Source: Deltaproteobacteria bacterium (lineage in GTDB: Bacteria; UBA10199; SPLOWO2-01-44-7). Taken from it: a stretch of DNA of 64,000 bases. Positions 28,162 to 46,400 of the stretch are shown piece by piece. Position 1 is the first letter of the stretch. Each line of letters starts with the position of its first letter. The notes beneath the pieces were generated by a model. The model was not told the DNA's origin. It searched no databases and was given only the letters and a program-made list of their open reading frames with translations. The position numbers and the translations under genes were made by a program. The stretch lies in assembly GCA_030648035.1 (NCBI GenBank), contig JAUSII010000122.1, positions 24,537 to 88,536 of the forward strand, written 5' to 3'.

Positions 28162-31100
28162 ATGGCATATGATTTTAAAAATGATGTTCGCCCGAAACCA
28201 TTTTCAAACGGGCTTTTAAGGTCATATCAAACAGGTGCCGAAAGCCATCCCAACCAAAACCATGATGTCTTGCAAACAGCCGCAAGCGGATATCAACACA
28301 AAACACCTGCTCTTTGGGAACGTATATTATTATCCCAGCCGGGGCTGGTGCTTGGATTCGCACTGTTTGCAGTTCTGACCGGATGCACGAGCGACACATC
28401 ACCCGGAAGTCCGGCATCACCCTCACCCACAACAACGCCCACACCGCAACCGGTAGATGCCGGAGTTTCAGAGGAGCCTTGCACGCCGAGCCAGGAATTT
28501 TGCGACGGACAAGACAACGATTGCGATGGTGAAACCGACGAGGATTATGCGGAGCGAACCCAAACCTGCGGCAAGGGAGCCTGTGCCAATACACAACCAG
28601 TTTGCGCCAACGGAAAAGCCCAACCCTGCTATGCGTTTGACGAAAATAGTTCTCCAGAAATTTGCGATGCCATTGACAATGACTGCGACGGTTACACCGA
28701 TGAACAATTTGATCTGGGGACAAAAATGGTGGGTGAAGGAGAATGCCGCCGACGAGTTGATAATTGCCGGGATGGACAAACCAATAATCCCGACCCGCTT
28801 CAGGGGGCTATATCGGAATCATGCGACCGACTTGACAATGATTGCGACGGCGCAACGGATGAAGAGCTTGGAGAAACCTCCTGCGGTTTGGGTGAATGTG
28901 AACATTCCATTTCAAATTGTCTGCATGGCGCCCTTCAATATTGCGACCCTCTTCAACACCGGCAGGAAGAGCGTTGCGACGGACTCGACAATGATTGCGA
29001 CGGTTCCACAGACGAAGAATTGTATCGCCCCTATTATAGCGGCAGACCAGGGACCATGGGGATCGGGGCCTGTCATTCTGGCATGGCCGTCTGTATCAAC
29101 GGACTGATGGATAATAATTTTCTTGTTGAAAATACAGCTCGGCCGGAAGTTTGCAACGGCGCAGATGACGATTGCAACGGACGTGTGGACGATGTGAATA
29201 TTCCCGAAATTTGCAACAGCTTGGATGATGATTGCGATGGCGATACGGATGAAAATATCCGCAATTGTCTCCGCGGTGAAATCTGCAATCCACAACCGGA
29301 AATTTGTAACGGCCGTGATGATGACTGCGATGACTTTGTTGACGAAAATCTGACCGAAAATTTTTATCCCGAATCCGACTTTCCCCTCACAGCGGGCATC
29401 GGCCCCTGTCTTGCGGGATTGAGAATGTGCATCGGAGAGAGATGGATGCCGGTTTCCTCTCCGATTACCCCCCATGCAGAAATGTGCGACGGCATCGACA
29501 ACGATTGCAATGGAGAGGTCGACAACGATCTGGGAATTTTTCCATGTGGGTTGGGAGATTGCCGACATATGATTGCCGTTTGTGAAAACAGCACACTTCA
29601 ATTTTGCACTCCCGATGAAGCTGTTCTGGGAGCGGCAGAGGAGACCTGTGATAACTCCGACAACGACTGCGATGGAACCATCGATGAAAATATTTTTCGG
29701 GAAGGCCGCTATCCGGGGCCAGAGGAAAGCCGGGATGTGGGACTTTGCCGTCCGGCCTTGGAATCCTGTATTTTTGAAGAGTGGCGTGAGGTGTCGTCCC
29801 CCATTGTGCCTGCTCTGGAATCTTGTGATTTGCAGGACAACGATTGCGATGGTTTGGCGGATGAGACAGCCGATCTCGGAACAACCACCTGCGGCTTGGG
29901 GCCGTGTGAAAACACCGTCGATAATTGTATCGGCGGAGCTTTACAGGTTTGCGCACCTCTCGATGTCGCCTTTCCCGAAGCCTGCGATACACTCGACAAC
30001 GATTGCGATGGAGCCAGCGATGAAACAGCCGATCTCGGAACAACCACCTGCGGCTTGGGGGCTTGCGAACACACGGCGGACAATTGCTTCAAAGGGGCGC
30101 TTCAGTTGTGCAATCCCATGGAAGGGGCTTCGCTGGAAGCATGCAACTCTATCGATGATGATTGCGACGCGGGCACAGATGAAGTCGAAGATCTGGGGAG
30201 ATCCACTTGCGGTGTGACCCCTTGTGAAAATACCGTCGACAACTGTGTCAACGGAGTCATCAATGCCTGCGATCCTTTTTTGGGGTCATCGGGAGAAACA
30301 TGCGACAACATTGACAACGACTGTGACAGCGAAACCGATGAAACAGCCGACTTGGGGCAAACCAGTTGCGGATTTGGGGCCTGCCAAAATACCGAGGACA
30401 ATTGTGTCGATAACCAGCCGCACGGCTGTACTCCGCTGAATAACAGCTCTCTGGAAATTTGCGCTGATGGAGTCGACAACAACTGCAACGGCCAGACCGA
30501 TGAGCTCTCTGTTGCCCCATCCCCCACGCACCCTTTGGCAGCAGGCCCCTATCCGGCCACACGCATCTATTTTTCATGGTCTCCGCTGGTGGCGGTTAAT
30601 CCACCGAGTTATGAACTCTGCTGGACTACCGGCGGTATCGCCGCGATTGATACTACAAATGAATGTCCGAACCGGACGGTGGTTTCCGGAAAGTCTTTTC
30701 ATGTTCTGGAAAATGTCACTCCCAACGCAACCCATATCTGGAAAGTAAGGGCTTTGTGCAAAGCCTCCGGTGTCGAGACAGCCCCTTACAGCGTGCCGCG
30801 AGCTTTCAGCGTCGATGACTCACTCATCGCCTGGTATAAATTCAACGCCAATGGCAACGGAATCGAAACCGATTATAGCGGTCATCTCTACAACGGCAAT
30901 TGGGTCGGCACAAACTTGGCCACACCACCACGGTTGGGCAACGGAAGTTTTTGCAACAGCATGGCGATGGGGCATGTGCTGACGGGGGCACTCTGTCTTG
31001 ATGGCGGCGATGACTATCTGGCTGTTCCCGCCCGAACCGATTTCAATCTGACTTATGAAGTTTCCGCCATGGCGTATCTCCATCCCAATGTGGCCACAAC

Positions 31101-31572
31101 CGGTGGCTCACTGGGCCGTCACATTGTTCTGGCCAAGGGGGGACAACTGGCTACCAATAACGATTCTTCTGATTATTCCATGGCGATTGATCCGCGTTCC
31201 AATCAGAATTTCAAGATGGTTTTTGGAACGCGGGGCGAAGAATGTTCCGTCACCAACAATTCTGTCGGATCGGGTGCGCCCCATTTTATCGCGGGCAGTT
31301 ACGATAACCAAACCATCAGTTGCTATCTTGACGGAGCGGCCGGCAACCCTTTCTCATTTATATTCAGCACCGACATTCCCAACAACACCCCCAGCGTGCG
31401 TATCGGAGCCGATACTTCAGCGGCCTCCACCTCCACTTATTTCAAGGGAGCATTGGACGATGTGATTCTTCGAAACGTTGTTTCTACCGAAGCGGCCATG
31501 GAACTCAACTTCTGCGCCATCAAGGGACTGACATTACAGCAGGGCGAAACCATGCCGACTTTGTGCCAGTAA
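28162..31572 (+). CDS. giant lipoprotein with >15 MopE-like Cys-rich 'CDGxDNDCDGxTDE' repeats, FN3-like region and C-terminal LamG/ConA-like domain
   Basis: Lipobox LTGC. Repeated Cx(2)CDGxDNDCDGxTDE units include two near-identical ~135-bp tandem copies at ~29850-30110. C-terminus is LamG_3-like. Confidence 0.8.
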   Translation: MAYDFKNDVRPKPFSNGLLRSYQTGAESHPNQNHDVLQTAASGYQHKTPALWERILLSQPGLVLGFALFAVLTGCTSDTSPGSPASPSPTTTPTPQPVDAGVSEEPCTPSQEFCDGQDNDCDGETDEDYAERTQTCGKGACANTQPVCANGKAQPCYAFDENSSPEICDAIDNDCDGYTDEQFDLGTKMVGEGECRRRVDNCRDGQTNNPDPLQGAISESCDRLDNDCDGATDEELGETSCGLGECEHSISNCLHGALQYCDPLQHRQEERCDGLDNDCDGSTDEELYRPYYSGRPGTMGIGACHSGMAVCINGLMDNNFLVENTARPEVCNGADDDCNGRVDDVNIPEICNSLDDDCDGDTDENIRNCLRGEICNPQPEICNGRDDDCDDFVDENLTENFYPESDFPLTAGIGPCLAGLRMCIGERWMPVSSPITPHAEMCDGIDNDCNGEVDNDLGIFPCGLGDCRHMIAVCENSTLQFCTPDEAVLGAAEETCDNSDNDCDGTIDENIFREGRYPGPEESRDVGLCRPALESCIFEEWREVSSPIVPALESCDLQDNDCDGLADETADLGTTTCGLGPCENTVDNCIGGALQVCAPLDVAFPEACDTLDNDCDGASDETADLGTTTCGLGACEHTADNCFKGALQLCNPMEGASLEACNSIDDDCDAGTDEVEDLGRSTCGVTPCENTVDNCVNGVINACDPFLGSSGETCDNIDNDCDSETDETADLGQTSCGFGACQNTEDNCVDNQPHGCTPLNNSSLEICADGVDNNCNGQTDELSVAPSPTHPLAAGPYPATRIYFSWSPLVAVNPPSYELCWTTGGIAAIDTTNECPNRTVVSGKSFHVLENVTPNATHIWKVRALCKASGVETAPYSVPRAFSVDDSLIAWYKFNANGNGIETDYSGHLYNGNWVGTNLATPPRLGNGSFCNSMAMGHVLTGALCLDGGDDYLAVPARTDFNLTYEVSAMAYLHPNVATTGGSLGRHIVLAKGGQLATNNDSSDYSMAIDPRSNQNFKMVFGTRGEECSVTNNSVGSGAPHFIAGSYDNQTISCYLDGAAGNPFSFIFSTDIPNNTPSVRIGADTSAASTSTYFKGALDDVILRNVVSTEAAMELNFCAIKGLTLQQGETMPTLCQ

Positions 31573-32542: not shown

Positions 32543-32992
32543 TTGCAGAGTAGGGAAATGCAAACACTCAAGAAAAAGATATTCATCGTCGATGACCACC
32601 CGATCGTCAGGGGTGGTCTTGCCCAACTCATCAATCAGGAAGAGGATATGATGTCTGTCGGTGAAGCGGGAAATGCCACAGAAGCGATTCAGGGGATTGA
32701 AAAATTAAAACCCGATCTGGTGCTCATGGATATCTCTCTGGAAGGCTCCAACGGAATAGAACTGACCAAAGGCATTCTGGCGGAACACCCCGAAATATGC
32801 GTGTTGATCATTTCGATGTATGACGAATCTCTCTATCTGGAGTCTGCCTTGCGGGCCGGGGCAAAAGGTTATCTGACAAAGCAACTGGCGTCAGATCATG
32901 TAGTCGTCGCCATTCGCACGGTTCTGAAAGGCGATATTTACATCAGCGATAAGTGGAAAGACAAGCTCACTGACAGCAAAAAACCCCTCTAG
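32543..32992 (+). CDS. receiver-domain-only response regulator (NarL/FixJ-type REC without HTH)
   Basis: Aligns to the REC domain of the full-length LuxR regulator at 42394-43068 (IFIVDDHPIVRGGLAQLINQE...), but stops after the REC. The stop codon lies inside motif P1. Confidence 0.8.
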   Translation: MQSREMQTLKKKIFIVDDHPIVRGGLAQLINQEEDMMSVGEAGNATEAIQGIEKLKPDLVLMDISLEGSNGIELTKGILAEHPEICVLIISMYDESLYLESALRAGAKGYLTKQLASDHVVVAIRTVLKGDIYISDKWKDKLTDSKKPL

Positions 32993-33035
32993 GGTAATCC
33001 CCCAGTCAAAAACCGTGTCTCCCCCGATTGTTCAC
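32990..33035 (+). promoter_or_regulatory. regulon motif copy P1 (TAGGGTAATCCCCCAGTCAAAAACCGTGTCTCCCCCGATTGTTCACCC)
   Basis: 70 bp upstream of 33106, in sense orientation. Confidence 0.7.
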
Positions 33036-33105
33036 CCACCCCCACCCCTGTAAGCTCGTCGTATAGATCAGAGTAGCGATCAAAAAAATAAAGGGGGGTA
33101 AATTT

Positions 33106-34923
33106 ATGAGAGTCCGCAAAAAGTTATTCACGAAGTTGCTCACGAAGTTGTTGGTGTCTTTGTCTCTGTCTCTGGCCACTCTGGTAACAGGTTGTGGCGG
33201 GAGTGATGGCGGAGGAGGGGTAGCAGGAACAACCACCGCCCTGGCCAACGTCGTTGTCCCCACTGTAAGTTCCACAAACCCTGCTGATGGTGATGTCGGT
33301 GTATTCATCAACAGAAAGGTGACTGCGGTATTCAGTGAGGATATGGACCCTGCAACCATCGACGACACAGTCTTTGTTTTAAACCAGGGAAGCGTGCCTG
33401 TTTCAGGTGTTGTAACCGCATCGGGTAACGCGGCCACCTTCACGCCCACAGGCAACTTGGGGATAAGCACCGTCTATACGGCAACGATCACGACCGGAGC
33501 CACCAGCTTGGCAGGTAATGGATTGGCCGCCAGTGAAGTATGGAGTTTTACGACAGGGACGACGGCAGATTCCACCGCCCCAACGGTGAGTTCCACAAAC
33601 CCGGTCAACGCGGCCACAGGTGTGGCCATCAACAGTACAGTCGCCGCATCCTTTAGCGAAGAGATGGATCCCCTGACGCTCACGACCTCCACTTTTCAAG
33701 TTTCAGGTCCTGACTCCGTTCTTGTCGCGGGGACGGTCAGCTATGCTTTGGTAGGCAACGTCGCAACCTTTACTCCCACAAGCAGTCTTGCAGTCAACAC
33801 CCTATTTACAGCAACAATCTCTACCGGTGCCAAAGACCTCGCGGGCAATGCGTTGGATTCCAGTAATGTATGGAGCTTTACAACAGGTGCAGTGGCGGAC
33901 AGTGTCGCCCCCACCGTCAGTTCCACCAACCCTGCTGATGCCGATGTGAGTGTGGCTCTTAACAAGACAATCTCCGCCACCTTCAGTGAGTCGATGAACG
34001 CCGCAACAATCACCACGGCAAACTACACATTGGCAGGGCCCGGCGCGGTTCCCGTCACAGGAACAGTCGACTATGTTTTGGCAACCAACATTGTAACCTT
34101 TACTCCCGCAAGCAATCTCGCACCGAGCACCTTATTTACAGCAACGATCAGCACCGGTGCCAAGGATCTCGCGGGGAATGCATTGGCTTCCAATAAAGTG
34201 TGGACCTTTACATCAGGGACAGAAGCGGCTCAGACTGTCGCTCAAACAGTAGTCCCCCTTGGATCGTCTTCCACCTTCGCGATTCTGGCTTCTGCGGCAA
34301 TCACCAGTATCCCGACTTCATCCGTTATCGGAGATATCGGTCTGACCCCGGATGCCGGATCCAATCTCACCGGGTTAACATGTTCAGAAATAACAGGCAC
34401 AGTCTACGTCACCAGTGCGGGTGGCAGTACTCTCGCCTGTCAGACCATCAGCGCGAGCATTCTCGATACCGCCAAAACCGATGCGGCCACTGCGTTCACC
34501 AATGCCAGGGACGCTGTTCGCGGAACACCTGCATCCATATCGGGCAATCTGAATGGTCTCACGCTGTATCCCGGGCTGTATGAATCGGGCACCTCGCTTG
34601 AGATATCCGCTGGCGGCATCCTTTATCTGGATGCTCAAGGCGATGCGGATGCCATCTTCGTCATCCGGAGTGAAACCTCCATCACCACACTGTCCACAAG
34701 CCAGATCGTCTTGACCAAAGGCGCAAAGGCCAACAACGTCTACTGGACAGCGGGAAGTGCGGTGACTCTGGGAGCCAACTCGATCATGAAGGGAACTTTC
34801 ATCGCGGGTACTGCGCTCACACTGCAGACCGGTGCAAACCTGGAAGGAAGAGCGTTGAACCAGGGTGCATCCGCCGCGGCGATTTCACTCGACGCCAGCA
34901 CTATTACCGTGCCTTCACCGTAG
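33106..34923 (+). CDS. secreted protein: 4 bacterial Ig-like (SbsA/Big_5-type) repeats + C-terminal DUF3494 ice-binding-like domain
   Basis: Lipobox/signal VTGCGG. Repeats APTVSSTNP...FTPxxNLAxxTLFTATIxTGAKDLAGNAL. C-terminal FAILASAAIT...GNLNGLTLYPGLYESG...NVYWTAGSAVTLGANS matches the DUF3494/IBP fold signature. Confidence 0.85.
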   Translation: MRVRKKLFTKLLTKLLVSLSLSLATLVTGCGGSDGGGGVAGTTTALANVVVPTVSSTNPADGDVGVFINRKVTAVFSEDMDPATIDDTVFVLNQGSVPVSGVVTASGNAATFTPTGNLGISTVYTATITTGATSLAGNGLAASEVWSFTTGTTADSTAPTVSSTNPVNAATGVAINSTVAASFSEEMDPLTLTTSTFQVSGPDSVLVAGTVSYALVGNVATFTPTSSLAVNTLFTATISTGAKDLAGNALDSSNVWSFTTGAVADSVAPTVSSTNPADADVSVALNKTISATFSESMNAATITTANYTLAGPGAVPVTGTVDYVLATNIVTFTPASNLAPSTLFTATISTGAKDLAGNALASNKVWTFTSGTEAAQTVAQTVVPLGSSSTFAILASAAITSIPTSSVIGDIGLTPDAGSNLTGLTCSEITGTVYVTSAGGSTLACQTISASILDTAKTDAATAFTNARDAVRGTPASISGNLNGLTLYPGLYESGTSLEISAGGILYLDAQGDADAIFVIRSETSITTLSTSQIVLTKGAKANNVYWTAGSAVTLGANSIMKGTFIAGTALTLQTGANLEGRALNQGASAAAISLDASTITVPSP

Positions 34924-34952
34924 GTACCCAGTGAACGCATAAGTTTTATGAA

Positions 34953-34989
34953 AACCCCCTGCACCGAAAGGTGCAGGGGGTTTTTATTT
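34953..34989 (+). terminator. rho-independent terminator (CCCCCTGCACC-GAAA-GGTGCAGGGGG + T-run)
   Basis: 11-bp GC-rich stem, GAAA loop, then TTTTTATTT. Confidence 0.85.
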
Positions 34990-35007
34990 GTGTCTTCGCG
35001 TCATCTT

Positions 35008-35044
35008 ACTCCCCCCCCTTTGAAAAAGGGGGGTTAGGGGGGGA
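35008..35044. repeat. G/C-tract palindrome (C8TTTGAAAAAG6-type), copy R1
   Basis: CCCCCCCCTTTGAAAAAGGGGGG; related to the copies at 35236, 35679 and 37472. Confidence 0.7.
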
Positions 35045-35053
35045 TTTAATCTC

Positions 35054-35305
35054 ATGCTCGAATACGATGCCAATTTGAAAAAATACTCACGACTACTTAG
35101 AAACAAAATGACAGATAGTGAGCGCAAGCTGTGGTCTCGGCTTCGCAAAAAACAGATTTTAACCGTGTTGCGTTTTGACAATTTAAAGGTGTTGCAAGAG
35201 ATGGATGGAGTCATGAGAACGGTTGGCGGGAGAAAATCCCCCCTGCCCCCCCTTTTTCAAAGGGGGGGAATAAAATGCACACACACTACCGGTCTCTTTT
35301 TATAA
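35054..35305 (+). pseudogene. truncated DUF559 (Vsr-like endonuclease domain) gene fragment
   Basis: N-terminus LLRNKMTDSERKLWSRLRKKQ matches the DUF559 N-terminus. The frame then runs into the G/C-tract palindrome (translated PLPPLFQRGG) with no catalytic half. Confidence 0.5.
35236..35290. repeat. G/C-tract palindrome CCCCCCCTTTTTCAAAGGGGGGG + AATGCACACAC tail, copy R2
   Basis: Shares the palindrome and the AATGCACAC(A/G)C tail with R3 and R4. Confidence 0.7.
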
Positions 35306-35567
35306 TCTGAATTTTGCATTCTTCTGCAATTTGAAGCAGACAATCCCAGATTGCTTTGTTGGGTCCTATTACAGTTAGTTGGTTGTCTTGTCTCCCGGCA
35401 ATCACTGGCACTACTTCATCTCCAAAGGAGGAGCCCAGCGAGGTAACTCCTCTAAAATCAAGCTCAACAGGATATTCCAGCGTCAGATTCAACTCTTCGA
35501 TTGTTTGTTTGCCAAACCCTCTTCCTGTAAGAATCGTTCCATATTTGCTCATATCCAATATGTTCAT
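35286..35567 (-). CDS. DUF4325/STAS-like small protein (putative partner-switching component)
   Basis: 93 aa with GRGFGKQTIEEL...LDFRGVTSLGSSFGDEV, resembling the DUF4325 STAS-like family that usually sits next to HATPase proteins. Confidence 0.45.
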   Translation of the reverse strand: MNILDMSKYGTILTGRGFGKQTIEELNLTLEYPVELDFRGVTSLGSSFGDEVVPVIAGRQDNQLTVIGPNKAIWDCLLQIAEECKIQIIKRDR

Positions 35568-35678
35568 AATTCTGAAATCCTCTTTTTACAAAACTTTACA
35601 ATATATTTTATAAGTTAATGTATTTCATGTGTTTTTAAGACTGAATGTCAGGATGACTCCGTAGGGCACATTTTTGAA

Positions 35679-35725
35679 TTCCCCCCCTTTTTCAAAGGGG
35701 GGAGTAAAAAGTAAAATGCACACTC
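35679..35725. repeat. G/C-tract palindrome copy R3, flanked by a 40-bp direct repeat (35627-35672 / 35738-35783)
   Basis: CCCCCCCTTTTTCAAAGGGGGGAGTAAAAAGTAAAATGCACAC; the flanking direct repeat is TTTTTAAGA..GTCAGGATGACTCCGT.GGG.A. Confidence 0.7.
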
Positions 35726-35740
35726 ATTACTCATGCCCGG

Positions 35741-37417
35741 TTAAGGAATGTTTTTAAGAATGCAAGTCAGGATGACTCCGTGGGGTATGTTGGGTTCCAC
35801 TTGAAAAGAGGCGCCTATGATGTGGGCACGGTTTTTCATGATCTTCAAGCCGATGCCTTTTGCATTTTGAGGATCCCCTACAAATCCTGTCCCTGCATCT
35901 TTGATGGTGAGGACAATGTTGCCGTTATTTCGAATGAAGCTGACATCGATCTCTTTGGCCTTCCCATGTTTGATCGCATTGACAATCCCCTCCTGCGCGA
36001 TTTTATAAATATGCGTGGCGACATCATTCTTGCTGATGAGAATGGGCTCGGGACAATAAAACCGGCACGAAACACCCGAAAGAGTCTGGTTGGCAGTCAA
36101 CTCTTCCAGCATATACATCAGGGAATTTCCTTCCAGCTCCCCCGGATAGAGGCCCCTCGCGGTATCCCGCGCCTGACTGGCGGCCCCATTGAGCAGGTCT
36201 GAAACTTTTTTCAAATCCGCCACGTCCAGATGTTTTCCCCTTTCCTTCTTTTGGGTGAGACTTTTCATCACCATCATGATCCCCGCCAGATCCTGGCAAA
36301 GACCGTCGTGAAGTTGTGCCCCAAAACATCTCTGCTCCGTATGGGTAATCTCCAATATTTCTTTGTTACTTTTAAGCAGTTCGGCGGTTCTTTCCTGAAC
36401 GCGCATTTCCATCTCTTCAAAAATAATCTGCAACCGCTCTTCCGCTTCTTTTCTCACAATAAATTGGCCCACCTGACCGCCAATGGTATCAAAGGTCTGC
36501 AACAACTCCTTATCAAAGCTTTTGCTCTCGATGCTGAAAAACTCCATGACCCCCAACATCTTTTTGCCCAGGCAAATCGGGAAAGCGACAGCACTCTTGA
36601 GACCCGCTTTCATCGCATGAGGAATACGTGAAAAATGGGGCGACTGGGCAAGATCGATGATCCAGCGCGGCTTTCCGCTCTCCCAGACTTCACATGGCAA
36701 TTCAACACCCTGCAAAAGTAGCGGCTTCTGATTGATTGCGAAAAACTCGGGGGCTTTTACCGAAGGGGAAAACCACGTCTGGTCGCAACGAATCTGGTGG
36801 GAGTCCGTATCCAGCATCCAGAAATTGCCGACGGCCCAACCCAGATTCTCTCCGATCGACTGGAGCACTTTTGGAAGGGCCTTTGCTGTGCCGGGAGCAA
36901 CGGCCAAAATCTGGCTGATCAGAAATTCGGTTTCGCGTTTGGCACTGGACTGACTCAATTGCTCCAACATGTTGGTGATTGTTTCGAGCTGATTTTCAAG
37001 CTCCCTTTTCTGCCGGTAAATCTCAATAAAAATATTCGCCTTGCTCCGGACCATGTGGGAGTCGAGCGGCTTGAGGAGAAAATCGACCGCGCCACTTTCA
37101 TAACCCTTGAACAAGAAGCCCTGGTCCTGGTCGGTCGCGGTGACAAAGATAATCGGAATGCTCCTGGTTTTTTTCGCCCCTCGCATGAGTTCAGCCAGTT
37201 CAAAGCCACTCATGCCGGGCATTTGCACATCAATGAGCGCCAGGGCAAATTCATCGCGCATCATAAACTCCAACGCCTCGGTTCCAGATTTGGCTTTGAA
37301 AATGGCGAGATCATCGCGCTTGAGCAATCCTTCCAGGGCAAGCAGATTGTCTTGCAGATCATCAACGAGGAGGATCTTGATCTGATTGGCATTTTTTTTC
37401 TTGTTTGGGTTCATCAT
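35741..37417 (-). CDS. hybrid REC-GAF-histidine kinase (HisKA_3/NarX-type HK)
   Basis: N-terminal receiver (ILLVDDLQDN...ALIDVQMPGMSG), GAF domain, an HisKA_3-type phospho-accepting His region, and HATPase (GIGLKIM). Confidence 0.85.
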   Translation of the reverse strand: MMNPNKKKNANQIKILLVDDLQDNLLALEGLLKRDDLAIFKAKSGTEALEFMMRDEFALALIDVQMPGMSGFELAELMRGAKKTRSIPIIFVTATDQDQGFLFKGYESGAVDFLLKPLDSHMVRSKANIFIEIYRQKRELENQLETITNMLEQLSQSSAKRETEFLISQILAVAPGTAKALPKVLQSIGENLGWAVGNFWMLDTDSHQIRCDQTWFSPSVKAPEFFAINQKPLLLQGVELPCEVWESGKPRWIIDLAQSPHFSRIPHAMKAGLKSAVAFPICLGKKMLGVMEFFSIESKSFDKELLQTFDTIGGQVGQFIVRKEAEERLQIIFEEMEMRVQERTAELLKSNKEILEITHTEQRCFGAQLHDGLCQDLAGIMMVMKSLTQKKERGKHLDVADLKKVSDLLNGAASQARDTARGLYPGELEGNSLMYMLEELTANQTLSGVSCRFYCPEPILISKNDVATHIYKIAQEGIVNAIKHGKAKEIDVSFIRNNGNIVLTIKDAGTGFVGDPQNAKGIGLKIMKNRAHIIGASFQVEPNIPHGVILTCILKNIP

Positions 37418-37471
37418 TATTATTTATGGATCATCGTGGAATCGAGTCGGTAAAAATGGTGGCCCTGTGAA

Positions 37472-37522
37472 ATCCCCCCTTACCCCCCTTTTTCAAAGGG
37501 GGGAGTGAAATGCACACGCATT
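37472..37522. repeat. G/C-tract palindrome copy R4
   Basis: CCCCCCTTTTTCAAAGGGGGGAGTGAAATGCACACGC. Confidence 0.7.
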
Positions 37523-37542
37523 CTTGCCCGCTTCTATTCAGC

Positions 37543-38403
37543 TCATTTCTTTTGAAAAATACGGTCCTTTTTTACAAAAGGATCAAAATATTTTGCATAT
37601 TGTGAAAACTGAATCGTCTCCTTGGCGCCCACACCCAAAAAACCTTTCCGGCAAAGCGACTCGTGAAAAAGTCCAAAGGCCCTGTCTTGCAGTTCGCGAT
37701 CAAAATAGATAAGCACATTCCGGCACGAGATCAACTGTGTTTCCATAAACACCGCATCGGTCACGAGACTATGATCTGCGAAGGTGATTTTTTTCTTCAA
37801 AATACTTTTGAATTTCGCCAGATTATCCGTTGCCGTGTAGTAGTCCGAAAGCGACCGCTTTCCACCCGACTTCTGGTAGTTCTCGGCGAAGCTCTGGATC
37901 ATTTTCAATTTAAAAACACCCTTTTCAGCTTTTTCAAGACTTCTGGGGTTGATATCAGTTGCATACAGGGTTGTGCGCGAAAGCAACCCCTCTTCCTGCA
38001 GCAGAATCGCAAGCGAATAGACCTCTTCTCCCGTACTGCATCCGGCGACCCAGACTTTGAGGGAAGGATAGGTTTTGAGCAATGGAAATACTTTTTGCCT
38101 CAACGCCAGAAAATAAGTGGGGTCGCGAAACATCTCGCTCACAGGAATCGTGAGAGATTCAATCAGATCATGGAAAAAATCAGAATCTTGGAGGATTTTT
38201 TTTTGAAGTATCGGGAGGGTGCCGCACCCCATCCGCTCCATCGCATGCACCATCGTTCGTTTCATCGAAGCGGGCGAATAATGCCGAAAATCGTAGTCGT
38301 ATTTAAGATTGATCGCCTCAAGCATGAGCTTCAGTTCGATCTCAAATTGCGGGTTCAGAATCCGTTCCATAAGCCTTAATTGCGCCCCAAGCTTGGCGTC
38401 CAA
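37543..38403 (-). CDS. CheR-type protein-glutamate O-methyltransferase
   Basis: CheR N-terminal helical domain plus SAM-binding core VWVAGCSTGEEVYSLAILL. The 3' end overlaps the start of the giant HK by 28 nt. Confidence 0.85.
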   Translation of the reverse strand: MDAKLGAQLRLMERILNPQFEIELKLMLEAINLKYDYDFRHYSPASMKRTMVHAMERMGCGTLPILQKKILQDSDFFHDLIESLTIPVSEMFRDPTYFLALRQKVFPLLKTYPSLKVWVAGCSTGEEVYSLAILLQEEGLLSRTTLYATDINPRSLEKAEKGVFKLKMIQSFAENYQKSGGKRSLSDYYTATDNLAKFKSILKKKITFADHSLVTDAVFMETQLISCRNVLIYFDRELQDRAFGLFHESLCRKGFLGVGAKETIQFSQYAKYFDPFVKKDRIFQKK

Positions 38404-41400
38404 ACCCGGATGACCGAGAAGAGCTGATGAAGATCGATGGGCTTGGAAAGATAATCATTCGCGCCGGCCTCCATGCAAAGCACCTGATCGTTCTTCGTGG
38501 CTTTGGCTGTCACAGCGATGATGGGAAGTTTTGAAAACCGTTTTTGTTTTCTGATCTCGCGCGTCGCCTGATAGCCATCCATCTCGGGCATCATGATATC
38601 CATGAGGACAAGATCTATGAGAGGATGATCTTTCAGTTTTGCGAGAGCCTCTTTTCCGTTTCTTGCAACCTCGATGTTGGCCCCTTTTTGCTCCAGAGCC
38701 GCGGTCAGCGCAAAGATGTTTCTGACATCGTCATCGACAACGAGAATCATTCTTCCTTTGAAGACATCTTCCCGACTCCGCAAGGTTTTCAGCAATTGCC
38801 GGTTTTCGGGTGAGAGTTTGGACTCCACGCGGTGAAGAAAAAGGCCGACTTCATCGAGCAGTCTCTCCGGAGACCTGGCTCCTTTGATAATGATCGAGCG
38901 GGAATATTTTCGAAGCGTGTCTTCTTCGTCCCGGGAGAGTGAGCGCCCGGTATAAATGATGACGGGGGGAAAGGAGGCCAGCTCTTTTTGTTCCGTCATT
39001 TTCTTCAATAGCTCTTCGCCCGACATATCCGGGAGTTTCAGATCAATCACCATGCAATCATAGACGGTTTTTTTGAGAGCATCGAGTGCCTCTTCCGCCA
39101 GGGCCACAGCCGTGATCTCGATATCGGGATTGGCAATGAGTTTGACCATGCTTTCTCTTTGAAGTTTGTTGTCCTCGACAATCAGAACGCGCTTTAACTT
39201 CTGGGAGAGATTGAATTCAATCTTGGCCAAAGCGGCCTTGAGTGCTTCGCGCTTGGCGGGTTTCAGCGTGTATCCGATGGCCCCCATCTGCATGGCCTTT
39301 TCTGTGTAATCATGCGCCGACGCAATATGGACCGGAATGTGCCGGGTCTTCGGATCTTCTTTGAGCTGGTCGAGCACCGTCAATCCCGAATGATCGGGAA
39401 GCATCATATCGAGCAGAATTGCATCTGGAATAAGACTTTGAGCAAACCCAAGCCCCTCTTCAGCATCTTGCGCGACCACGCACTTGTAGTTCAGCTCATG
39501 GGCCAGATCAAAAAGAATCTGGGCAGACTGCGATTCATCTTCGATCACCAACAACACGCGTCCGGGCTTTGCCCCGCGAGATTTGAGAGTGCCCCGATCA
39601 TCTGCAAAAGGCAGAGGCTGGATTCGCTCTACGCGTGGTTTGACCTGCACTGCGACGGGTAATGACGATGAATAGGCCTTTGGAGATGCCGACACAACGT
39701 GGGACTCGTCATAGGTCTCGGGCAGGAGAAGTGTGAAGCGGCTCCCTTCACCGGGCACACTCTCGACTGCAACAGTGCCACCGAGAAGTCTCGCAAGATC
39801 TCGTGTGATGGAAAGTCCAAGACCTGTGCCACCATATTTTCGATTGGTCGTCCCATCGGCTTGACGAAACGCCTCAAAAATCACTTCTTGTTGGGCTTTT
39901 GGAACCCCGATACCGGTGTCGATCACCGCGAGCGAGAGCTTCCCTTCCGCGCTCCGGGACACATGCAGTATGACCTGTCCTTTTTCCGTGAACTTGAATG
40001 CATTGGAAAGCAGATTCTTCAGAATTTGTTCCAGTCGTTGACGATCTGTGAGCATCGTCTCTGGCACACCCGGATCGATCTTGATTTGAAATTGGAGTTT
40101 CTTTTCGCGGGCCACGGGATCAAAAGTTTTTTCAAGAGTATTAAAAACACTGGGGAGAAACACGTTCTCGGGCCTGATCTCCAGTTTTCCGGCCTCCACT
40201 TTCGAGAGATCGAGAATATCGTTGATGAGATTCAGCAGGTCATTGCCTGCAGACGAGATGGAATGTGCATACTGGACTTGCTCCACGGTCAGGTTTCCAC
40301 CTGCATTGTCCGCGAGAAGCTTCGCCAGAATCAGCGAGCTGTTGAGCGGGGTCCGAAGCTCGTGGGACATATTCGCGAGAAATTCTGACTTATACTGGCT
40401 GGCTCTTTGCACTTCGTCGGACCTCTCTTCAAGCAGTGTCTGCGCTTTGTTGAGGGCCTCATTGTTTTCGTTTAAAATGTCGCGCTGTTGTTCAAGCTTT
40501 TCGTTGGTCTGCTCCAACTCCGATTGCTGATTTTTGAGTTTCGTCTGGGACTCCTGCAATGCGCGCGATTGGTCCTCAAGTTCATCATTGGTCGCTTTCA
40601 ACTCTGCTTGCTGGGTTTGCAGTTCTTCGGTCAAATCCTGCGATCTTTCGAGAAGCTCCTGCTGTTTCTTGCGGCTGATGGAGGTGTTGATCGCAATCCC
40701 GATATTCTCGGACACATGCTCCAGAAATGTTTTTTGATGTTCGGAAAAGGATGCAAAAGAAGCCAGCTCGATCACACCATTGACCTCTCCCTCATAAAAA
40801 ACAGGGGCCAGAAGCAGAGAACTCGGGGTGGAGTCGCCTAAGTCCGAACGGATTTTTCCAAAGTAACGCGAGGGCACTTTTTCGAGAAGGATGGGTCGCT
40901 TTTCCAACGCGGCCTGACCGACCAGCCCCTCTCCAATGGCAATCGTCTTCTCTTTGTCATCCAATTTGGAATAGGCATAACCGCTCACGCGCTTGAGCAT
41001 TTTTTCTTCGGTAACGTAGTAAAAAGCGCCCATCTGGGCATTCAAAAATGGCGCAAGATGACTCAAAACGCTTTGCCCCAGGCGTGAAACATCCTGCTCG
41101 CCGCGCATTTTGTCAGAGAGAGTGATCTGGCCTTCACGAAGAAATTCAAGTTCGCGTGCCTTTTCCCGGAGTGAGGCTTCGGCGTGCTTTCTTTCCGTGA
41201 TATCGCGCTCGGTGGTGGCAATGCCGGTCAGTTTTCCTTTGTCATCTGTGAGTTTGGTATTGATCAGCCAAACATCGATGATCCTGCCGTCTTTATGCTT
41301 TCGCTTGGTCTCAAGATTGGGCAATAATTCTCCGCGTTTCAGCGAGGCAAAAAATCCACGGGCTTCTTCCTGATATTCCGTCGGAACAGTATCAACGATA

Positions 41401-42347
41401 TTTTTGCGCAGTGCTTCCGCTTCTGAATAGCCATACATGGTTTCAGCACCCCGGTTCCATGCCAGGATGTTTCCTTCCAGATCCTGAAAGGTGATGGCAT
41501 CATTCGAATCTTGAATAACCGTCGCCATACGACGAAACTTTTCCAGTGCTCCCATGCGCTCGGAAATATCGCGTTCGGTGGTGGCGATGCCGGTCAGCTT
41601 TCCCTTATCATCCGTGAGTTTGGTGTTGGTCAGCCACACATCGACGATCCGGCCATCTTTGGTTTTTCGTTTTGTTTCCAGATTGGGCACCAGCTCGCCG
41701 CGTTTCAACGAGGCCAAAAATTCACGCGCTTCAGCCTGATATTCGGTGGGCACGGTATCGACGATATTCATGCGCAATGCTTCTGCCTGCGAATAACCAT
41801 AAATTTGTTCAGCGCCATGGTTCCATGCCAGGATGTTGCCTTCCAGATCCTGAAAGGTGATGGCATCATTTGAATCTTGAATAACCGTCGCCATGCGACG
41901 AAACTTTTCCAGTGCGCCCATGCGCTCGGAAATATCGCGTTCGGTGGTGGCGATGCCGGTCAGCTTTCCCTTGTCATCCGTGAGTTTGGTGTTGGTCAGC
42001 CAGACATCAACGATTCTGCCATCTTTGGTTTTTCGTTTTGTCTCCAAGTTGGGCACCAACTCGCCGCGTTTCAGCGAGGCAAGAAATTCACGCGCTTCAG
42101 CCTGATATTCTGTGGGCACGGTATCGACGATATTCATGCGCAAGGCTTCTGCTTCTGAATAGCCATACATGGTTTCAGCACCCTGGTTCCATGCCAAGAT
42201 GTTACCTTCCAAATCCTGAAAGGTGATGGCATCATTCGAATCTTGAATAACAGTCGCCATACGGCGAAATCTTTCCAACGACCCCAATTGCTTGGCAACC
42301 GCTTTGGGGCGTTTCACTTTGCCGTGCTGTTTTAATTTTGGGGCCAT
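38376..42347 (-). CDS. multi-sensor hybrid histidine kinase: 3 tandem PAS, GAF, coiled coil, HisKA-HATPase, 3 receiver domains (1323 aa)
   Basis: Three ~122-aa PAS units (two almost identical), GAF, Q/E-rich coiled coil, H-box MSHELRTPLN, G-box GTGLGLSI, then three D-containing REC domains. Confidence 0.9.
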   Translation of the reverse strand: MAPKLKQHGKVKRPKAVAKQLGSLERFRRMATVIQDSNDAITFQDLEGNILAWNQGAETMYGYSEAEALRMNIVDTVPTEYQAEAREFLASLKRGELVPNLETKRKTKDGRIVDVWLTNTKLTDDKGKLTGIATTERDISERMGALEKFRRMATVIQDSNDAITFQDLEGNILAWNHGAEQIYGYSQAEALRMNIVDTVPTEYQAEAREFLASLKRGELVPNLETKRKTKDGRIVDVWLTNTKLTDDKGKLTGIATTERDISERMGALEKFRRMATVIQDSNDAITFQDLEGNILAWNRGAETMYGYSEAEALRKNIVDTVPTEYQEEARGFFASLKRGELLPNLETKRKHKDGRIIDVWLINTKLTDDKGKLTGIATTERDITERKHAEASLREKARELEFLREGQITLSDKMRGEQDVSRLGQSVLSHLAPFLNAQMGAFYYVTEEKMLKRVSGYAYSKLDDKEKTIAIGEGLVGQAALEKRPILLEKVPSRYFGKIRSDLGDSTPSSLLLAPVFYEGEVNGVIELASFASFSEHQKTFLEHVSENIGIAINTSISRKKQQELLERSQDLTEELQTQQAELKATNDELEDQSRALQESQTKLKNQQSELEQTNEKLEQQRDILNENNEALNKAQTLLEERSDEVQRASQYKSEFLANMSHELRTPLNSSLILAKLLADNAGGNLTVEQVQYAHSISSAGNDLLNLINDILDLSKVEAGKLEIRPENVFLPSVFNTLEKTFDPVAREKKLQFQIKIDPGVPETMLTDRQRLEQILKNLLSNAFKFTEKGQVILHVSRSAEGKLSLAVIDTGIGVPKAQQEVIFEAFRQADGTTNRKYGGTGLGLSITRDLARLLGGTVAVESVPGEGSRFTLLLPETYDESHVVSASPKAYSSSLPVAVQVKPRVERIQPLPFADDRGTLKSRGAKPGRVLLVIEDESQSAQILFDLAHELNYKCVVAQDAEEGLGFAQSLIPDAILLDMMLPDHSGLTVLDQLKEDPKTRHIPVHIASAHDYTEKAMQMGAIGYTLKPAKREALKAALAKIEFNLSQKLKRVLIVEDNKLQRESMVKLIANPDIEITAVALAEEALDALKKTVYDCMVIDLKLPDMSGEELLKKMTEQKELASFPPVIIYTGRSLSRDEEDTLRKYSRSIIIKGARSPERLLDEVGLFLHRVESKLSPENRQLLKTLRSREDVFKGRMILVVDDDVRNIFALTAALEQKGANIEVARNGKEALAKLKDHPLIDLVLMDIMMPEMDGYQATREIRKQKRFSKLPIIAVTAKATKNDQVLCMEAGANDYLSKPIDLHQLFSVIRVWTPSLGRN

Positions 42348-42393
42348 TTTTTATTCCTCGGAAAGTACGCGTGGGAATCTACTTTGTGGAAAT

Positions 42394-43068
42394 CTACTTT
42401 TCAGCGAGACACCATTTAACAGCATATTGGATGAGCTCATGAGAATTTTTCAGGTCCAGCTTGTTTTTAATATTGGCGTAATGCGATTCGATCGTCTTCA
42501 CACTCACAAAAAGTGACTCGGCAATGCGGTTGGTGGCATACCCCTGACCAATGAGTCTCAAGACCTCCAATTCGCGATCGCTTAACTTGCCCGTAGTGGC
42601 CCCGATCAGAGATTTGCCCCCTCCACTGAACTGGTGCATCAGGGTCTCTTTCATACGATCGCTCACATAAATATCACCACTGACCACTTTGCGAATAGCC
42701 GTTGTCACATAATCGGTGGCGGACTGTTTCATGAGATAACCTTTGGCCCCTGCCTTTAAAACACGTTCCACATGAAGAGACTCATCATACATTGAAAGAA
42801 TCAGGACGAGCGTTTTGGGATAATTGGCAACAAGATTTTTGGTGAGTTCGATACCGCTGGTTCCCTGCAGGGAGATATCCACGATCGCCACGTCGGGTTT
42901 GATCTTCGCAATGCTCTTCAGGGCTTCATCAGAAGTTCCGGCCTCTCCAACAGAGATCATATCGCTCTCCTGATTGATGAGCTGGGCCAGGCCCTGTCTG
43001 ACAATCGGATGATCATCAACGATAAAAACCTTCGTTTTTTCCACTTTATTTTTCAACGCGGTATTCAT
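42394..43068 (-). CDS. LuxR/NarL-family response regulator (REC + HTH)
   Basis: REC domain (VFIVDDHPIVRQGL...AIVDISL) plus LuxR-type HTH (LSDRELEVLRLIGQGYATNRIAESLFVSVKTIESH). Confidence 0.9.
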   Translation of the reverse strand: MNTALKNKVEKTKVFIVDDHPIVRQGLAQLINQESDMISVGEAGTSDEALKSIAKIKPDVAIVDISLQGTSGIELTKNLVANYPKTLVLILSMYDESLHVERVLKAGAKGYLMKQSATDYVTTAIRKVVSGDIYVSDRMKETLMHQFSGGGKSLIGATTGKLSDRELEVLRLIGQGYATNRIAESLFVSVKTIESHYANIKNKLDLKNSHELIQYAVKWCLAEK

Positions 43069-43218
43069 CTTCTTGTGTTATGCGCCTTTCATCGGAACAA
43101 TGACAAGTCTTCACTTCAGTCTACACCCTGATGGACTGACCTGTAACCCTTTTATTTTCTTATTTCCATGAGGGAAAACCGTATTTTCAAATGGGGGAAT
43201 CCCCCAGAGTTTGGGCAT

Positions 43219-43292
43219 TGTCATTGCGAGCGCAGCGAAGCAATCCCGTTGATCATCGGGATTGCCACGGCCCCTTCGGGGCCTCGCAATGA
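43219..43292. repeat. GTCATTGCGAG nested-palindrome element, copy 4 (with adjacent half-motif GGAATCCCCCAG at 43193-43215)
   Basis: Full element with terminal inverted repeats. Its 3' flank CTTTGTCAACAAACTCTTAAG + P2 is duplicated at 46770-46858. Confidence 0.8.
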
Positions 43293-43313
43293 CACTTTGT
43301 CAACAAACTCTTA

Positions 43314-43450: not shown

Positions 43451-46400
43451 ATGAGTATGACCGACGGAATATGTTTTAGACCGAATCAAAGCCATTCTGA
43501 AGCAGAAGATGCCAATATGTCCTGTGCGTCTTTTGAATCTTTCAGCTCATCGACCGTTCAGACAGAAGGGGCAGATTCTGGAGGACGAGAACGTTTTTTA
43601 GCGGGCAGAGATTATCTAAGAGATTTGGAAGGGCGTTCTGTTCTGCCAGATGGCTACAAGGGCAAATCCAATGGTATTCCTTTAGGGATATTCGCTGTTG
43701 CCGGCGTTACTGGAACAACAGTGGGACTTATTGCAACGCCTGCAGTTGGACTTGCCGTGGGAGGAGCTATTTTATTGTCCGGATGTTCGGATACAGACAA
43801 CCCAAAGGGAAAAACAGATTCTTCGGCAGAACCGGTATGTAATAAAAATTCTGATTGCAATCCCCCTGTCACAGTTTGTAAAGAGGGAACCTGCCAACCT
43901 CCTAAACCCTGCAATGATGATGAAGATTGCGAGGGAGAAAATGTAAATACTCAATGCGATGATGCTTTGGGAGTATGCAGAGAAAATACCACTTCAATTG
44001 AAATTTGTGACGGCTTAGATAACAACGAGGATGGTAAAATTGATATCGATCCTCAGACAGGTGAAAAAATTTCGAAACCCTGCGGTGGCCGGAGTGTTGG
44101 AATATGCCGTCCAGGGGCACAACACTGCGACGCCGAAAAGAACTCTGCTCAAGAACATTGGAGCGATTGTACAGGAGTTGTTCCGAAAAAGAATGAGCAG
44201 TGTAATGGATTAGATGATGACTGTGATGGCTTAACGGATGAAGACCTGCCCGAATGCGGCCTTCATGTTCCCGTTTTAAATCCGATTGGTGACAAAATTA
44301 TTGATGAGGGACAGCGGTTGAGGTTTGTTTTGTCAGCAGTGGATGCGGATGATAATCCGTTAACCTATTTTGCATCTCACCTTCCGGAGGGAGCTAGATT
44401 TGATCCGGTCGACCGCGTTTTTGATTGGACCCCCAGTTTTGAACAGGCGGATGTCTATTCAGACATTCACTTTGGAGTGAGTGATGGGATAACTACGACT
44501 GGTGAAGATATTACGATCACCGTTCAAAATGTGAATCGTCGGTGTGTCATGTCTCCAATTCCAGATCAGACGGTGGATGAAAATGAATCTTTGGTTGTGA
44601 CCGTAAATGCATCCGACCCGGATGTGGATGACACGTTGATTTTTAGCGGAGATAACTTACCAGCAGGTGCGACAGTAAACTCGAGCACCGGAAAATTAAA
44701 CTGGAGACCCACCCTTACGCAAGCCGGAGCATACCGAGACATCGGGATCACGGCGACAGATGGGGATATGAGCTGTAACCAGCATTTTGATGTTGCGGTT
44801 ATCAATGCCAACCGACCGCCGGTAATGGACGCCATCTCCAATCAGACCATCAATGAAAATCAATTACTCACCGTTACCCCACGGGCCTCCGATCCAGATG
44901 GTCAAACCTTAAATTTCAGTGGCAATAATTTGCCTCGTGGTGCGGTAGTCAATCCAACTACAGGAGTGTTGACTTGGACACCCGGCTTCGATCAGGCCGG
45001 CTCATATCCAAACGTGGGGATCACCGCGAGTGATGGGAGTTTAAGCGTTACACAAAGATTTAGTATAACCGTTAATAATGGAAACAGGCCGCCAGTAATG
45101 GAAGCCATCCCCAATCGGACTATCAATGAGAATCAATTACTTACCATCACCCCACGGGCCTCTGATCCAGACGGTCAAACTTTAAATTTCAGTGGCAATA
45201 ATTTACCCCGCGGTGCGGCAGTTAATTCAACTACAGGGGTGTTGACTTGGACCCCCGGCTTCGATCAAGCGGGCACATACCCAAACGTGGGGATCACCGC
45301 GAGTGATGAAAATTTAAGCGTCACACAAAGATTTAGTATCACCGTTAATAACGTAAACAGTCCTCCAATTTTAAATTCAATCGGCAATAGAACTGTCAAT
45401 GAAGGAGGATTGTTGACGTTTACCGTTTTTGCATCCGATCCAGATGGAGATGCGCTGACCTATTCCGCCTCCAATCTGCCGACGGGATCGAGTTTTAATG
45501 TTTCAACGAGAGTTTTCAGTTGGACACCAAATTGCAGGCAAGCGGGTGCATATCCGGTAAGTTTTTCTGTGACAGATCGTGGGACACCCAATTTATCAGA
45601 TAGTGAAAATGTTATGGTCACAGTTAACGAAGCCTGTTCCAATGTTGCGTGGACTAGAACATATAATGGATCGTTTAATGGTAGGGATATCGGCCATGGC
45701 ATCGCCGTGGATAATAATGGGAATGTGTATGTGACGGGTTCTGAGGAGGCTACTGAACTAAATTATAATATTTGGGTCAGGAAGTATGATGCCAATGGCA
45801 ACACTTTATGGACAAGGACCTATAATGGCTCTGCTAATAGTACTGATGAAGGCCGAGGCATCGCCGTAGATAATAATGGAAATGTGTATGTGACTGGGTC
45901 TGAAATTGTTGCCGGGCAACGTAGTAATGTTTGGGTTAGAAAATATGATACCAATGGCAATGCTTTATGGACCGAAACCTATAATAATCCTGCTAACAGT
46001 TCGGATGAAGGTCACGGCATCGCTGTAGATAATAATGGGAATGTGTATGTAGCGGGAGATGAGAATGTTGCTGTACAATATGCTAATATCTGGGTCAGAA
46101 AATATGATGCCAATGGCAATGCCTTATGGACCAAGACCTATAATAATCCTGCTAATGGTCCTGATATGGGCCAAGGCATTGCCGTAGACAATGTTGGAAA
46201 TGTGTATGTGACGGGTTTTGAGGATGCTGATGAGGAATCTTTTAATATCTGGATCAGGAAGTATGATGCCAATGGCAATACTTTATGGACAAGGACCCAT
46301 AATGCCAATTGGGGAGATTTCGGCAACGGTATTGCCGTAGACGGAAATGGAAATGTGTATGTGACGGGTTCTGAGACTGTTGTTGCGGGAAATGATAATA

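Follow-up and report, generated by a model that had tools for sequence, protein, structure and literature searches.

The 64,000-nucleotide stretch of DNA analysed here, referred to as the window, originates from a Deltaproteobacteria bacterium (assembly GCA_030648035.1, contig JAUSII010000122.1, positions 24,537 to 88,536 of the forward strand). At 32543-43068 it carries an island of signalling genes associated with a recurrent promoter-like motif. Here we describe the island, the motif and the genes that follow the motif, and propose how the system may operate.

Results

Signalling genes and their conserved order

An earlier note, made from the bare sequence, had listed six regulatory genes in the island, and all six open reading frames (ORFs) are present with the domains it named (Pfam; the domain scan of the window covered ORFs of at least 200 aa and all ORFs of the island). 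Four of them are co-directional on the minus strand, from 43068 down to 35741, with gaps of 46, ~5 and 125 nt. The first gene of this cluster encodes a NarL/FixJ-type response regulator (RR) with a receiver (REC) and a GerE-type helix-turn-helix (HTH) domain (42394-43068), followed by a soluble hybrid histidine kinase (HK) with the domain order PASx3-GAF-HisKA-HATPase-RECx3 (38376-42347), a CheR-type S-adenosylmethionine-dependent methyltransferase (37543-38403; Pfam CheR, 1.7e-37) and a REC-GAF-HisKA_3-HATPase kinase (35741-37417). The other two are a receiver-only NarL-family protein on the plus strand (32543/32558-32992; Pfam Response_reg, 1.6e-27) and a 93-aa STAS-like DUF4325 protein on the minus strand (35286-35567; Pfam, 25.3 bits, just over the cut-off). 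Besides signalling genes, the interval holds a DUF559 fragment (35054-35305, plus strand; Pfam match over only 30 residues), palindromes resembling repetitive extragenic palindromic (REP) elements, and a non-regulatory gene for a lipoprotein with three Big_5 domains and an Ice_binding-like domain (33106-34923, plus strand; Pfam) with a terminator hairpin on its 3' side (34948-34987). This lipoprotein gene is the target of motif copy P1, and both lie inside the interval, so that the island is not, as had been claimed, flanked on both sides by motif-driven genes.

The order RR, PAS/GAF hybrid HK, CheR, REC-HisKA_3 HK is kept in the related loci L002/L003 (RR 86% identical) and is identical in L004/L005 (RR 79% identical). 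Locus L006 (RR 82%) is a variant, in which an extra CheB-CheR-PAS-HisKA_3 fusion gene follows the RR and the last position is taken by a REC-HisKA-HATPase-REC protein instead of the REC-HisKA_3 ortholog found in L002-L005. The four-gene order is seen in three related lineages, L006 being the variant one, and a stand-alone CheR gene lies between both kinase genes throughout L002-L006. This recurrence indicates that the clustering is an inherited arrangement rather than chance. Elsewhere, a CheB-CheR-HisKA_3 fusion adjoins the RR ortholog (L091), and RR orthologs of 64-69% identity are found in plain HisKA_3 kinase and RR pairs (L007, L008, L009 and L092). The window's REC-GAF-HisKA_3 kinase has the H-box QLHDGLCQDL and matches HisKA_3 at 24.7 bits (cut-off 24) and HATPase_c at 29.5 bits, next to REC and GAF domains; from this composition, it is likely the cognate kinase of the NarL-type receivers.

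A promoter-like motif with a palindrome and a third half-site

Six copies of the motif occur in the window at up to 2 mismatches, all on the plus strand and all before plus-strand genes, where 0 are expected by chance. The 5' part is a 15-bp palindrome, TAGGGrA-A-TCCCCyA (TAGGGGA-A-TCCCCTA), followed by an A-tract. The third half-site, TCCCCCGAT, located 22 bp downstream, leads into a weak -35-like TTGTnn; a -10-like TAnnnT stands 19 nt farther on, with the sigma-70 spacing of 17 nt. The consensus of 39 copies pooled from 11 loci reads TAGGGaAATCCCCcAgtCaAAAATCctGt.TCCCCCGATtGTtc-N17-tgTAnnnT. What had earlier been called a direct repeat is hence a palindrome with a third half-site, not just a direct repeat, and the layout, as judged from these predicted elements, is that of an activator-dependent promoter.

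Copy P1 (32990-33056) comprises the palindrome TAGGGTAATCCCCCA, the A-tract, the half-site TCCCCCGATTGT (ending at 33031) and a -10-like TAAGCT at 33051-33056. P2 (43312-43353) is divergent from the RR cluster and precedes a gene for a 1087-aa He_PIG/SBBP surface protein (43451-46714). The four remaining copies, at 46804-46845, 47381-47422, 48237-48278 and 49980-50021, are followed by genes for a 168-aa protein, a DUF883-like and holin-X-like pair, a second Big_5/Ice_binding protein, and a 350-aa protein and then a TSP_3 protein. Two degenerate plus-strand copies precede a CsbD-like gene (18774-18814) and, with a perfect palindrome TAGGGGAATCCCCCA, a CsbD gene at 60810-61037 (60680-60721). In addition, a stand-alone palindrome, TGGGGGAATCCCCCA (43192-43206), lies 125 nt ahead of the RR start codon and may be an autoregulatory site of the RR.

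Two other promoter types were considered for the motif and dropped, namely sigma-54 (TGGCAC-N5-TTGC is not present) and the extracytoplasmic function (ECF) type (the fixed GGAAC/CGTT pair is not there), in both cases with the sigma-70-spaced TTGTnn-N17-TAnnnT being conserved. Among the surroundings of the copies, a long GC-rich hairpin element lies at 43215-43295, upstream of P2, and a CCTCGCAATGACACTTTGTCAACAAA stretch is common to the upstream flanks of P2 and P3 (~46740-46800); from this likeness, a larger repeated unit may carry some of the motif copies.

The response regulator as candidate binder

The protein encoded at 42394-43068 is a NarL/FixJ-type RR by Response_reg (1.5e-25) and GerE (7.2e-17) matches and by pocket residues conserved in the alignment. 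No NCBIfam equivalog reached its cut-off, hence it is not a named ortholog. An exact look-up of the RR gave no match; in homology searches, the RR and the receiver-only protein each had an identical NCBI counterpart, encoded on a 99.5-kb contig of a metagenome-assembled genome. Among RR orthologs of 64-86% identity the HTH is almost invariant.

The 39 motif copies adjoin RR orthologs in 11 loci, and no related locus whose flank is long enough lacks the motif. L007 carries seven, all in a 6-kb stretch, L091 carries six and L092 four, and sites are also found in L002, L004, L006, L008, L009 and L011; in L008 one copy starts 27 nt after the RR stop codon, and in L004 a full motif is located directly upstream of the RR gene. 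Shuffled controls gave 0 motif sites. At larger evolutionary distances, 13 of 64 distant loci have GGGGAATCCCC in the 250 nt that follow the RR, against 0.05 expected (~270-fold), and RR homologs of 47-57% identity (metagenome loci including L013, L018, L027, L033 and L051) have a variant box, ATCGGGGAATCCCCGAT ... GAAAAAGTGG..CTCCCGCTTGT, just downstream, so that the pairing of regulator and box seems to reach well beyond the lineage of the window. An exact-match scan of the GTDB species representatives, too strict for mapping the distribution of the regulon, returned one match, upstream of a transaldolase gene (L001).

The NarL-type RR is the sole regulator common to all motif-bearing loci examined, and no sigma-factor gene was detected among the window ORFs of at least 200 aa, the island ORFs or the called genes of the related loci. 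The proposal that this LuxR/NarL-type RR is the best candidate binder is thereby strengthened, in that motif copies accompany its orthologs and the GGGGAATCCCC palindrome follows its distant homologs, and we regard the comparative evidence for this predicted pairing of RR and motif as good.

Genes following the motif

In the window, the motif precedes two CsbD genes, the DUF883-like (ElaB/YqjD-type) and holin-X-like pair, two Ice_binding/Big_5 lipoproteins, the giant He_PIG/SBBP surface protein, a small outer-membrane-like protein and a TSP_3/OmpA gene cluster. The related loci are similar: the motif is followed by CsbD-BON-?-SOD-OmpA-ferritin in L009 (SOD, superoxide dismutase), by CsbD ... 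DUF883-like ... holin_3_6 in L008, by EF-hand and DUF883-like proteins in L007 and L092, and by GGDEF-REC and Ice_binding proteins in L002, with Ice_binding again motif-linked near the module in L091. Some kinase genes also carry an upstream motif (L006 at 3736, L091 at 5158 and 7660, L004 at 9917), which makes these kinases members of the regulon.

A common promoter element thus stands before CsbD, DUF883/ElaB, BON/OsmY, ferritin, SOD and transaldolase genes, and such core content is a hallmark of the RpoS, sigma-B and EcfG regulons. By its gene content the predicted regulon looks like a general stress response, as the earlier note had sensed, with CsbD, DUF883, BON, SOD, ferritin and OmpA among the targets.

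A receiver-only relative of the regulator

The receiver-only protein has 144 aa from the ATG at 32558, in an ORF that opens at TTG 32543. The absence of an HTH, noted before, is borne out by the lack of a GerE domain (Pfam), and no HTH remnant was detected downstream of the receiver or anywhere in the window (tblastn). Likewise, its TAG stop codon (32990-32992) does provide the first three bases of the TAGGG of the P1 palindrome. The relation to the RR at 42394 needs correction, since the REC domains, described as near-identical, share 64% identity over 133 aa, and the protein is not a truncated copy of that RR: it is 75-76% identical to the full-length RRs P0017, P0022 and P0025, which points to descent from a second RR lineage rather than to a recent copy of 42394. 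It falls outside the full NarL/FixJ definition, its best NCBIfam matches (MctR and NarL) being below cut-off, and is, as far as its sequence tells, a single-domain receiver derived from the NarL/FixJ family. The protein retains its acceptor residues (DD, D, S and K) and the conserved alpha-1 helix (HPIVRxGLAQLINQE), and is therefore predicted to be capable of docking to the kinase used by the RR.

A second receiver-only ortholog, P0122 (L010; 141 aa, 78% identical), has its own TGA stop codon, and its gene overlaps the end of a HisKA_3-type kinase gene, to which it is translationally coupled. Both proteins end 4-7 codons past the same ...DKW..KL position, and the genes have a short post-coding stretch in common; the shared endpoint and stretch suggest a single ancestral loss of the HTH. 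With dN/dS at 0.14-0.20 (dS 0.75-1.0) between the window gene and P0122, the receiver-only gene appears to be maintained under purifying selection. The simplest reading is that the protein serves as a phosphate sink or a dominant-negative decoy, a role that its sequence makes plausible.

The locus of P0022, the closest full-length relative (L091), contains the CheB-CheR-HisKA_3 gene, extra PAS kinases, three stand-alone receivers and motif-driven Ice_binding genes, and the arrangement of receiver, motif and Ice_binding gene in the window is probably an old linkage, now inverted relative to the operon. No convincing inverted repeats that would explain an inversion of the receiver/Ice_binding block were found, the search returning only REP-like palindromes near the DUF4325/DUF559 cassette. 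A stand-alone REC of L006 that ends just before a motif was rejected as receiver-only ortholog (25% identity). In PADLOC, two weak matches both fell on the receiver-only protein (E 1.2e-5 and 7e-4) and were taken as generic receiver-domain similarity; the DUF4325, DUF559 and CheR genes were not assigned to any known defence family.

The hybrid kinase and its neighbouring CheR

The three PAS domains of the hybrid kinase are near-identical and encoded by a 366-bp tandem repeat (41200-42277; 2.9 copies, 87% match). The orthologous kinases of L002-L006 are ~240 aa shorter, suggesting that the PAS triplication is recent. Between GAF and HisKA lies a ~95-residue segment with 33% E+Q and 10 adjacent E/Q pairs, nearly invariant across the orthologs except for a 7-residue indel, i.e. 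one heptad, in L002; by its composition this segment is a predicted signalling coiled coil.

The probable start of the CheR gene is the ATG at 38370, 5 nt past the stop codon of the hybrid kinase. The protein contains the motif AGCSTGEE, and its best PDB match is B. subtilis CheR (5FTW, 1.3e-33). CheR is the sole Che-family protein among the window ORFs tested, which gave no matches to CheA, CheW, MCPsignal or CheB; a Che pathway, in which CheA, CheW and a methyl-accepting chemotaxis protein (MCP) accompany CheR and CheB, is accordingly not encoded by these ORFs.

Elsewhere in the window, a PAS-HisKA-HATPase kinase gene (59446-60660) and then a stand-alone receiver gene (59094-59450) lie on the minus strand at 59094-60660, divergent from the degenerate motif; this pair may be an additional input branch of the network.

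The DUF4325 gene and the insertion zone

The DUF4325 gene lies in a zone (35012-35730) that contains three C7-TTTTTCAAA-G7 palindromes, the DUF559 fragment and a duplicate of the kinase 3' end. These REP-like elements are located at 35012-35047, 35233-35289 and 35681-35730, two of them with a TAAAATGCACAC tail (repeat families D5, D6 and D9; pairs I1, I4 and I5), the duplicate of the kinase 3' end spans 37 nt (35630-35666), and the DUF4325 gene is flanked by direct repeats of roughly 44-50 nt. The DUF4325/DUF559 arrangement looks like a cassette insertion at a repeat hotspot.

The DUF4325 family is tight, with members 70-86% identical. Outside the window, an upstream GHKL-ATPase-like gene of at least ~330 aa with N and G boxes (ELVDNAMTH and DVGPGI) invariably overlaps the DUF4325 gene, and these pairs sit in unrelated neighbourhoods near toxin-antitoxin genes. 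The GHKL-like partner (L093:3-998 and L094:1-810) has no Pfam match, and the two genes constitute an uncharacterised ATPase and STAS-like module. The window lacks this partner, and none of the related module loci examined carries a DUF4325 gene. The window gene is an inserted orphan, a later arrival that does not belong to the signalling system.

Partner switching or a branched phosphorelay had been suggested for the island. A PP2C, an RsbW-type kinase and a sigma factor were all absent from the window ORFs tested and from the related loci, and the weak STAS-like DUF4325 is the only component of a partner-switching system present; with DUF4325 being an inserted orphan, this half of the suggestion finds no support. 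The conserved order of the RR, hybrid HK, CheR and REC-HK genes, in contrast, makes a multi-kinase relay plausible.

Discussion

Based on gene order, domain composition and the distribution of the motif, we think it fairly probable that a general-stress-like regulon is governed from this locus, by a two-component cascade and not by an alternative sigma factor. The cascade would operate as follows. The soluble PAS/GAF hybrid kinase would sense an intracellular cue, its basal activity being set by CheR through methylation of Glu/Gln residues in the GAF-HisKA coiled coil, as RsbM does on the S-helix of RsbK. The hybrid kinase would then phosphorylate the N-terminal receiver of the REC-GAF-HisKA_3 kinase and thereby switch it, comparable to CheA3 acting on CheS3, and the HisKA_3 kinase would in turn phosphorylate the NarL-type RR. 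An RR dimer is predicted to occupy the palindrome TAGGGrA-A-TCCCCyA, centred near -62, with a further subunit on TCCCCCGAT beside the weak -35 (TTGTnn), and the bound subunits would recruit sigma-70-type RNA polymerase to the TAnnnT -10. The receiver-only paralog would damp or time the response: it would either draw phosphate away from the HisKA_3 kinase or pair with the RR in non-productive dimers. More tentatively, the locus may be one instance of a widespread, undescribed stress response run by NarL-family regulators, present in uncultured Deltaproteobacteria-like lineages and with a soil version (RR ~50% identical), that combines the palindrome and half-site box, a methylation-tuned kinase cascade and an HTH-less decoy or sink; we regard this wider claim as possible, with the balance tilting slightly against it.

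Several observations weigh against the proposed cascade. The link between RR and motif is one of co-localisation, and the six window copies differ very little over 36-42 bp, beyond the needs of a binding site, so that part of this conservation could stem from a promoter cassette that spread recently. The coiled coil of the hybrid kinase lacks the strict MCP methylation consensus and no CheB is encoded nearby, which makes this segment no more than a candidate substrate of CheR, and the phosphate route between the kinases is assumed, no histidine phosphotransfer (HPt) domain having been seen. The receiver-only gene of the window is not adjacent to any kinase gene, no promoter-like site was found upstream of it, and the context of its ortholog P0122 is barely visible, as L010 spans only 700 bp.

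Conservation of the whole box, A-tract included, together with the promoter-like orientation of all copies toward genes and the motifs upstream of some kinase genes, would also fit a promoter or operator of another factor, be it an alternative or ECF sigma factor or another transcription factor, with the RR and the kinases as mere regulon members or neighbours. We judge this unlikely: the loci have no sigma or other DNA-binding gene in common, only the RR; a separate TAnnnT -10 lies at sigma-70 spacing from TTGTnn; the 5' palindrome is typical of dimeric HTH regulators; and the palindrome shifts with RR divergence, to ATCGGGGAATCCCCGAT at ~50% identity. Partner switching between DUF4325 and the HATPase domain of the neighbouring kinase appears highly improbable, even though DUF4325 exceeds its Pfam cut-off, has a GHKL-ATPase-like gene as its usual neighbour elsewhere and is encoded 173 nt downstream of the kinase on the same strand, as its absence from the related module loci, the insertion-like direct repeats with the duplicated kinase 3' end, the missing PP2C, RsbW-type kinase and sigma factor and the occurrence of the family in unrelated contexts near toxin-antitoxin genes all argue otherwise.

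For the receiver-only protein, the main alternative to a sink or decoy is a positive relay or hub that passes phosphate on or contacts another partner, as MrrA and SdrG do. Single-domain receivers integrate the general stress response of Caulobacter (PMC5964349), and stand-alone REC genes are found beside extra kinases in L006, in L091 and at 59094-59450 of the window; however, the sequence is NarL-type, with an alpha-1 helix almost identical to that of the DNA-binding RR, which predicts competition for the same kinase, and neither an HPt protein nor a second acceptor is evident, making a hub role somewhat improbable though the most credible of the competing explanations. Decay, i.e. a functionless remnant of a deleted regulator, would account for a stop codon supplied by the conserved TAG of the motif and for a gene that has neither an adjacent kinase nor a predicted promoter in a rearranged neighbourhood. 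Selection against amino acid changes relative to the second ortholog (dN/dS 0.14-0.20 at dS ~0.75-1.0), the intact set of catalytic residues and the endpoints of both orthologs, which lie within 4-7 codons of one position, render a remnant quite unlikely. The cascade with an RR-bound motif and a modulating receiver-only paralog hence remains the preferred reading.

The closest precedent for the locus is RsbK/RsbM of B. cereus, in which the CheR-type RsbM methylates the S-helix of RsbK (CHASE3-HAMP-GAF-S-helix-HK-REC) and thereby holds the general stress response off; 127 RsbK-like kinases in 10 phyla have been cited (PMC4574943). As in the RsbK-RsbM-RsbY system (PMC4574943), the hybrid kinase is multi-sensor and combines GAF, a coiled coil, HisKA and HATPase with receiver(s) at the C-terminus, the CheR gene directly follows the kinase gene, an adjacency kept in L002-L006, no CheB or MCP is encoded locally, and CsbD-type genes belong to the stress regulon. 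The comparison, made by domain order and gene adjacency, also reveals differences, the present kinase being a soluble protein that has three receivers and takes its input through PAS domains in place of CHASE3-HAMP. The output likewise differs: RsbY (REC-PP2C), which feeds the RsbV/RsbW/sigma-B switch, has its place taken here by the REC-GAF-HisKA_3 kinase and the DNA-binding, NarL-type RR. By analogy, we infer that the CheR-hybrid kinase pair would work as RsbM-RsbK does.

The output side resembles DosS/DosT-DosR (DevR) of Mycobacterium and OsdR of Streptomyces, where a GAF HisKA_3 kinase and a NarL-family RR control a stress or dormancy regulon (PMC5069765). Unlike DosS/DosT, the kinase here carries a receiver at its N-terminus and would act under another, methylation-linked kinase, and the regulon holds CsbD, DUF883 and Ice_binding genes rather than the universal stress proteins and alpha-crystallin of the DosR regulon. 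DosR sites are G/C-rich palindromic boxes just upstream of weak -35 elements, as at the present motif, whereas the box here is TAGGGGA-A-TCCCCTA with a third half-site. In NarL 7-2-7 sites, a dimeric GerE-type HTH binds inverted C-rich heptamers of the TACCCCT type; the present box differs from these in being 7-1-7, in the opposite polarity of its half-sites and in the extra direct half-site 22 bp downstream.

Stand-alone receivers are also known to tune the flow of phosphate into a multi-kinase general stress response, namely the LovR sink, the MrrA hub and SdrG (PMC5964349), but those are CheY-like and act on the PhyR-NepR-EcfG switch, whereas here the receiver is a NarL-type, HTH-less paralog of the output regulator. 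Control of the N-terminal receiver of a second kinase has a parallel in the Che3 pathway of Rhodospirillum centenum, a CheR-containing, non-chemotactic pathway governing a stress or dormancy programme, where CheA3 phosphorylates the receiver of the REC-HK CheS3, upstream of CheY3 (PMC3868531); here, by comparison, genes for CheA, CheW, MCP and CheB are lacking, and a DNA-binding RR provides the output. Taken together, the system is best described as a putative RsbK/RsbM-like input joined to a DosR-like HisKA_3/NarL output over a general-stress-type regulon. The searchable literature yielded neither a description of this combined system nor a report from Deltaproteobacteria of a general-stress regulator of the NarL type that targets CsbD or DUF883 genes.

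Most of what is understood about general stress responses concerns those governed by a sigma factor (RpoS, sigma-B or EcfG), and far less is understood about their organisation in the many uncultured Deltaproteobacteria-like lineages. The locus offers a testable regulon, with a 42-bp promoter box, a candidate master regulator with a near-invariant HTH and core stress genes. If the proposal is correct, the RsbK/RsbM idea of CheR-type methylation adapting a histidine kinase, and not a chemoreceptor, extends to a different output logic, and the receiver-only paralog would represent a natural case of a transcription factor's own receiver recruited as modulator.

Additional features of the window

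Outside the island, we note a LAGLIDADG-domain ORF (1030-1839), a regulator with FHA, sigma-54-activator and HTH_8 domains (11093-12358) and a Fic-MerR fusion (25440-26435), none of which appears related to the signalling locus. Two large secreted proteins with MopE-type metal-binding motifs are encoded at 28162-31572 and 19707-21551; Laminin_G_3 occurs in one of them and LRR repeats in the other, and both add to the many surface and adhesin-like genes of the window.

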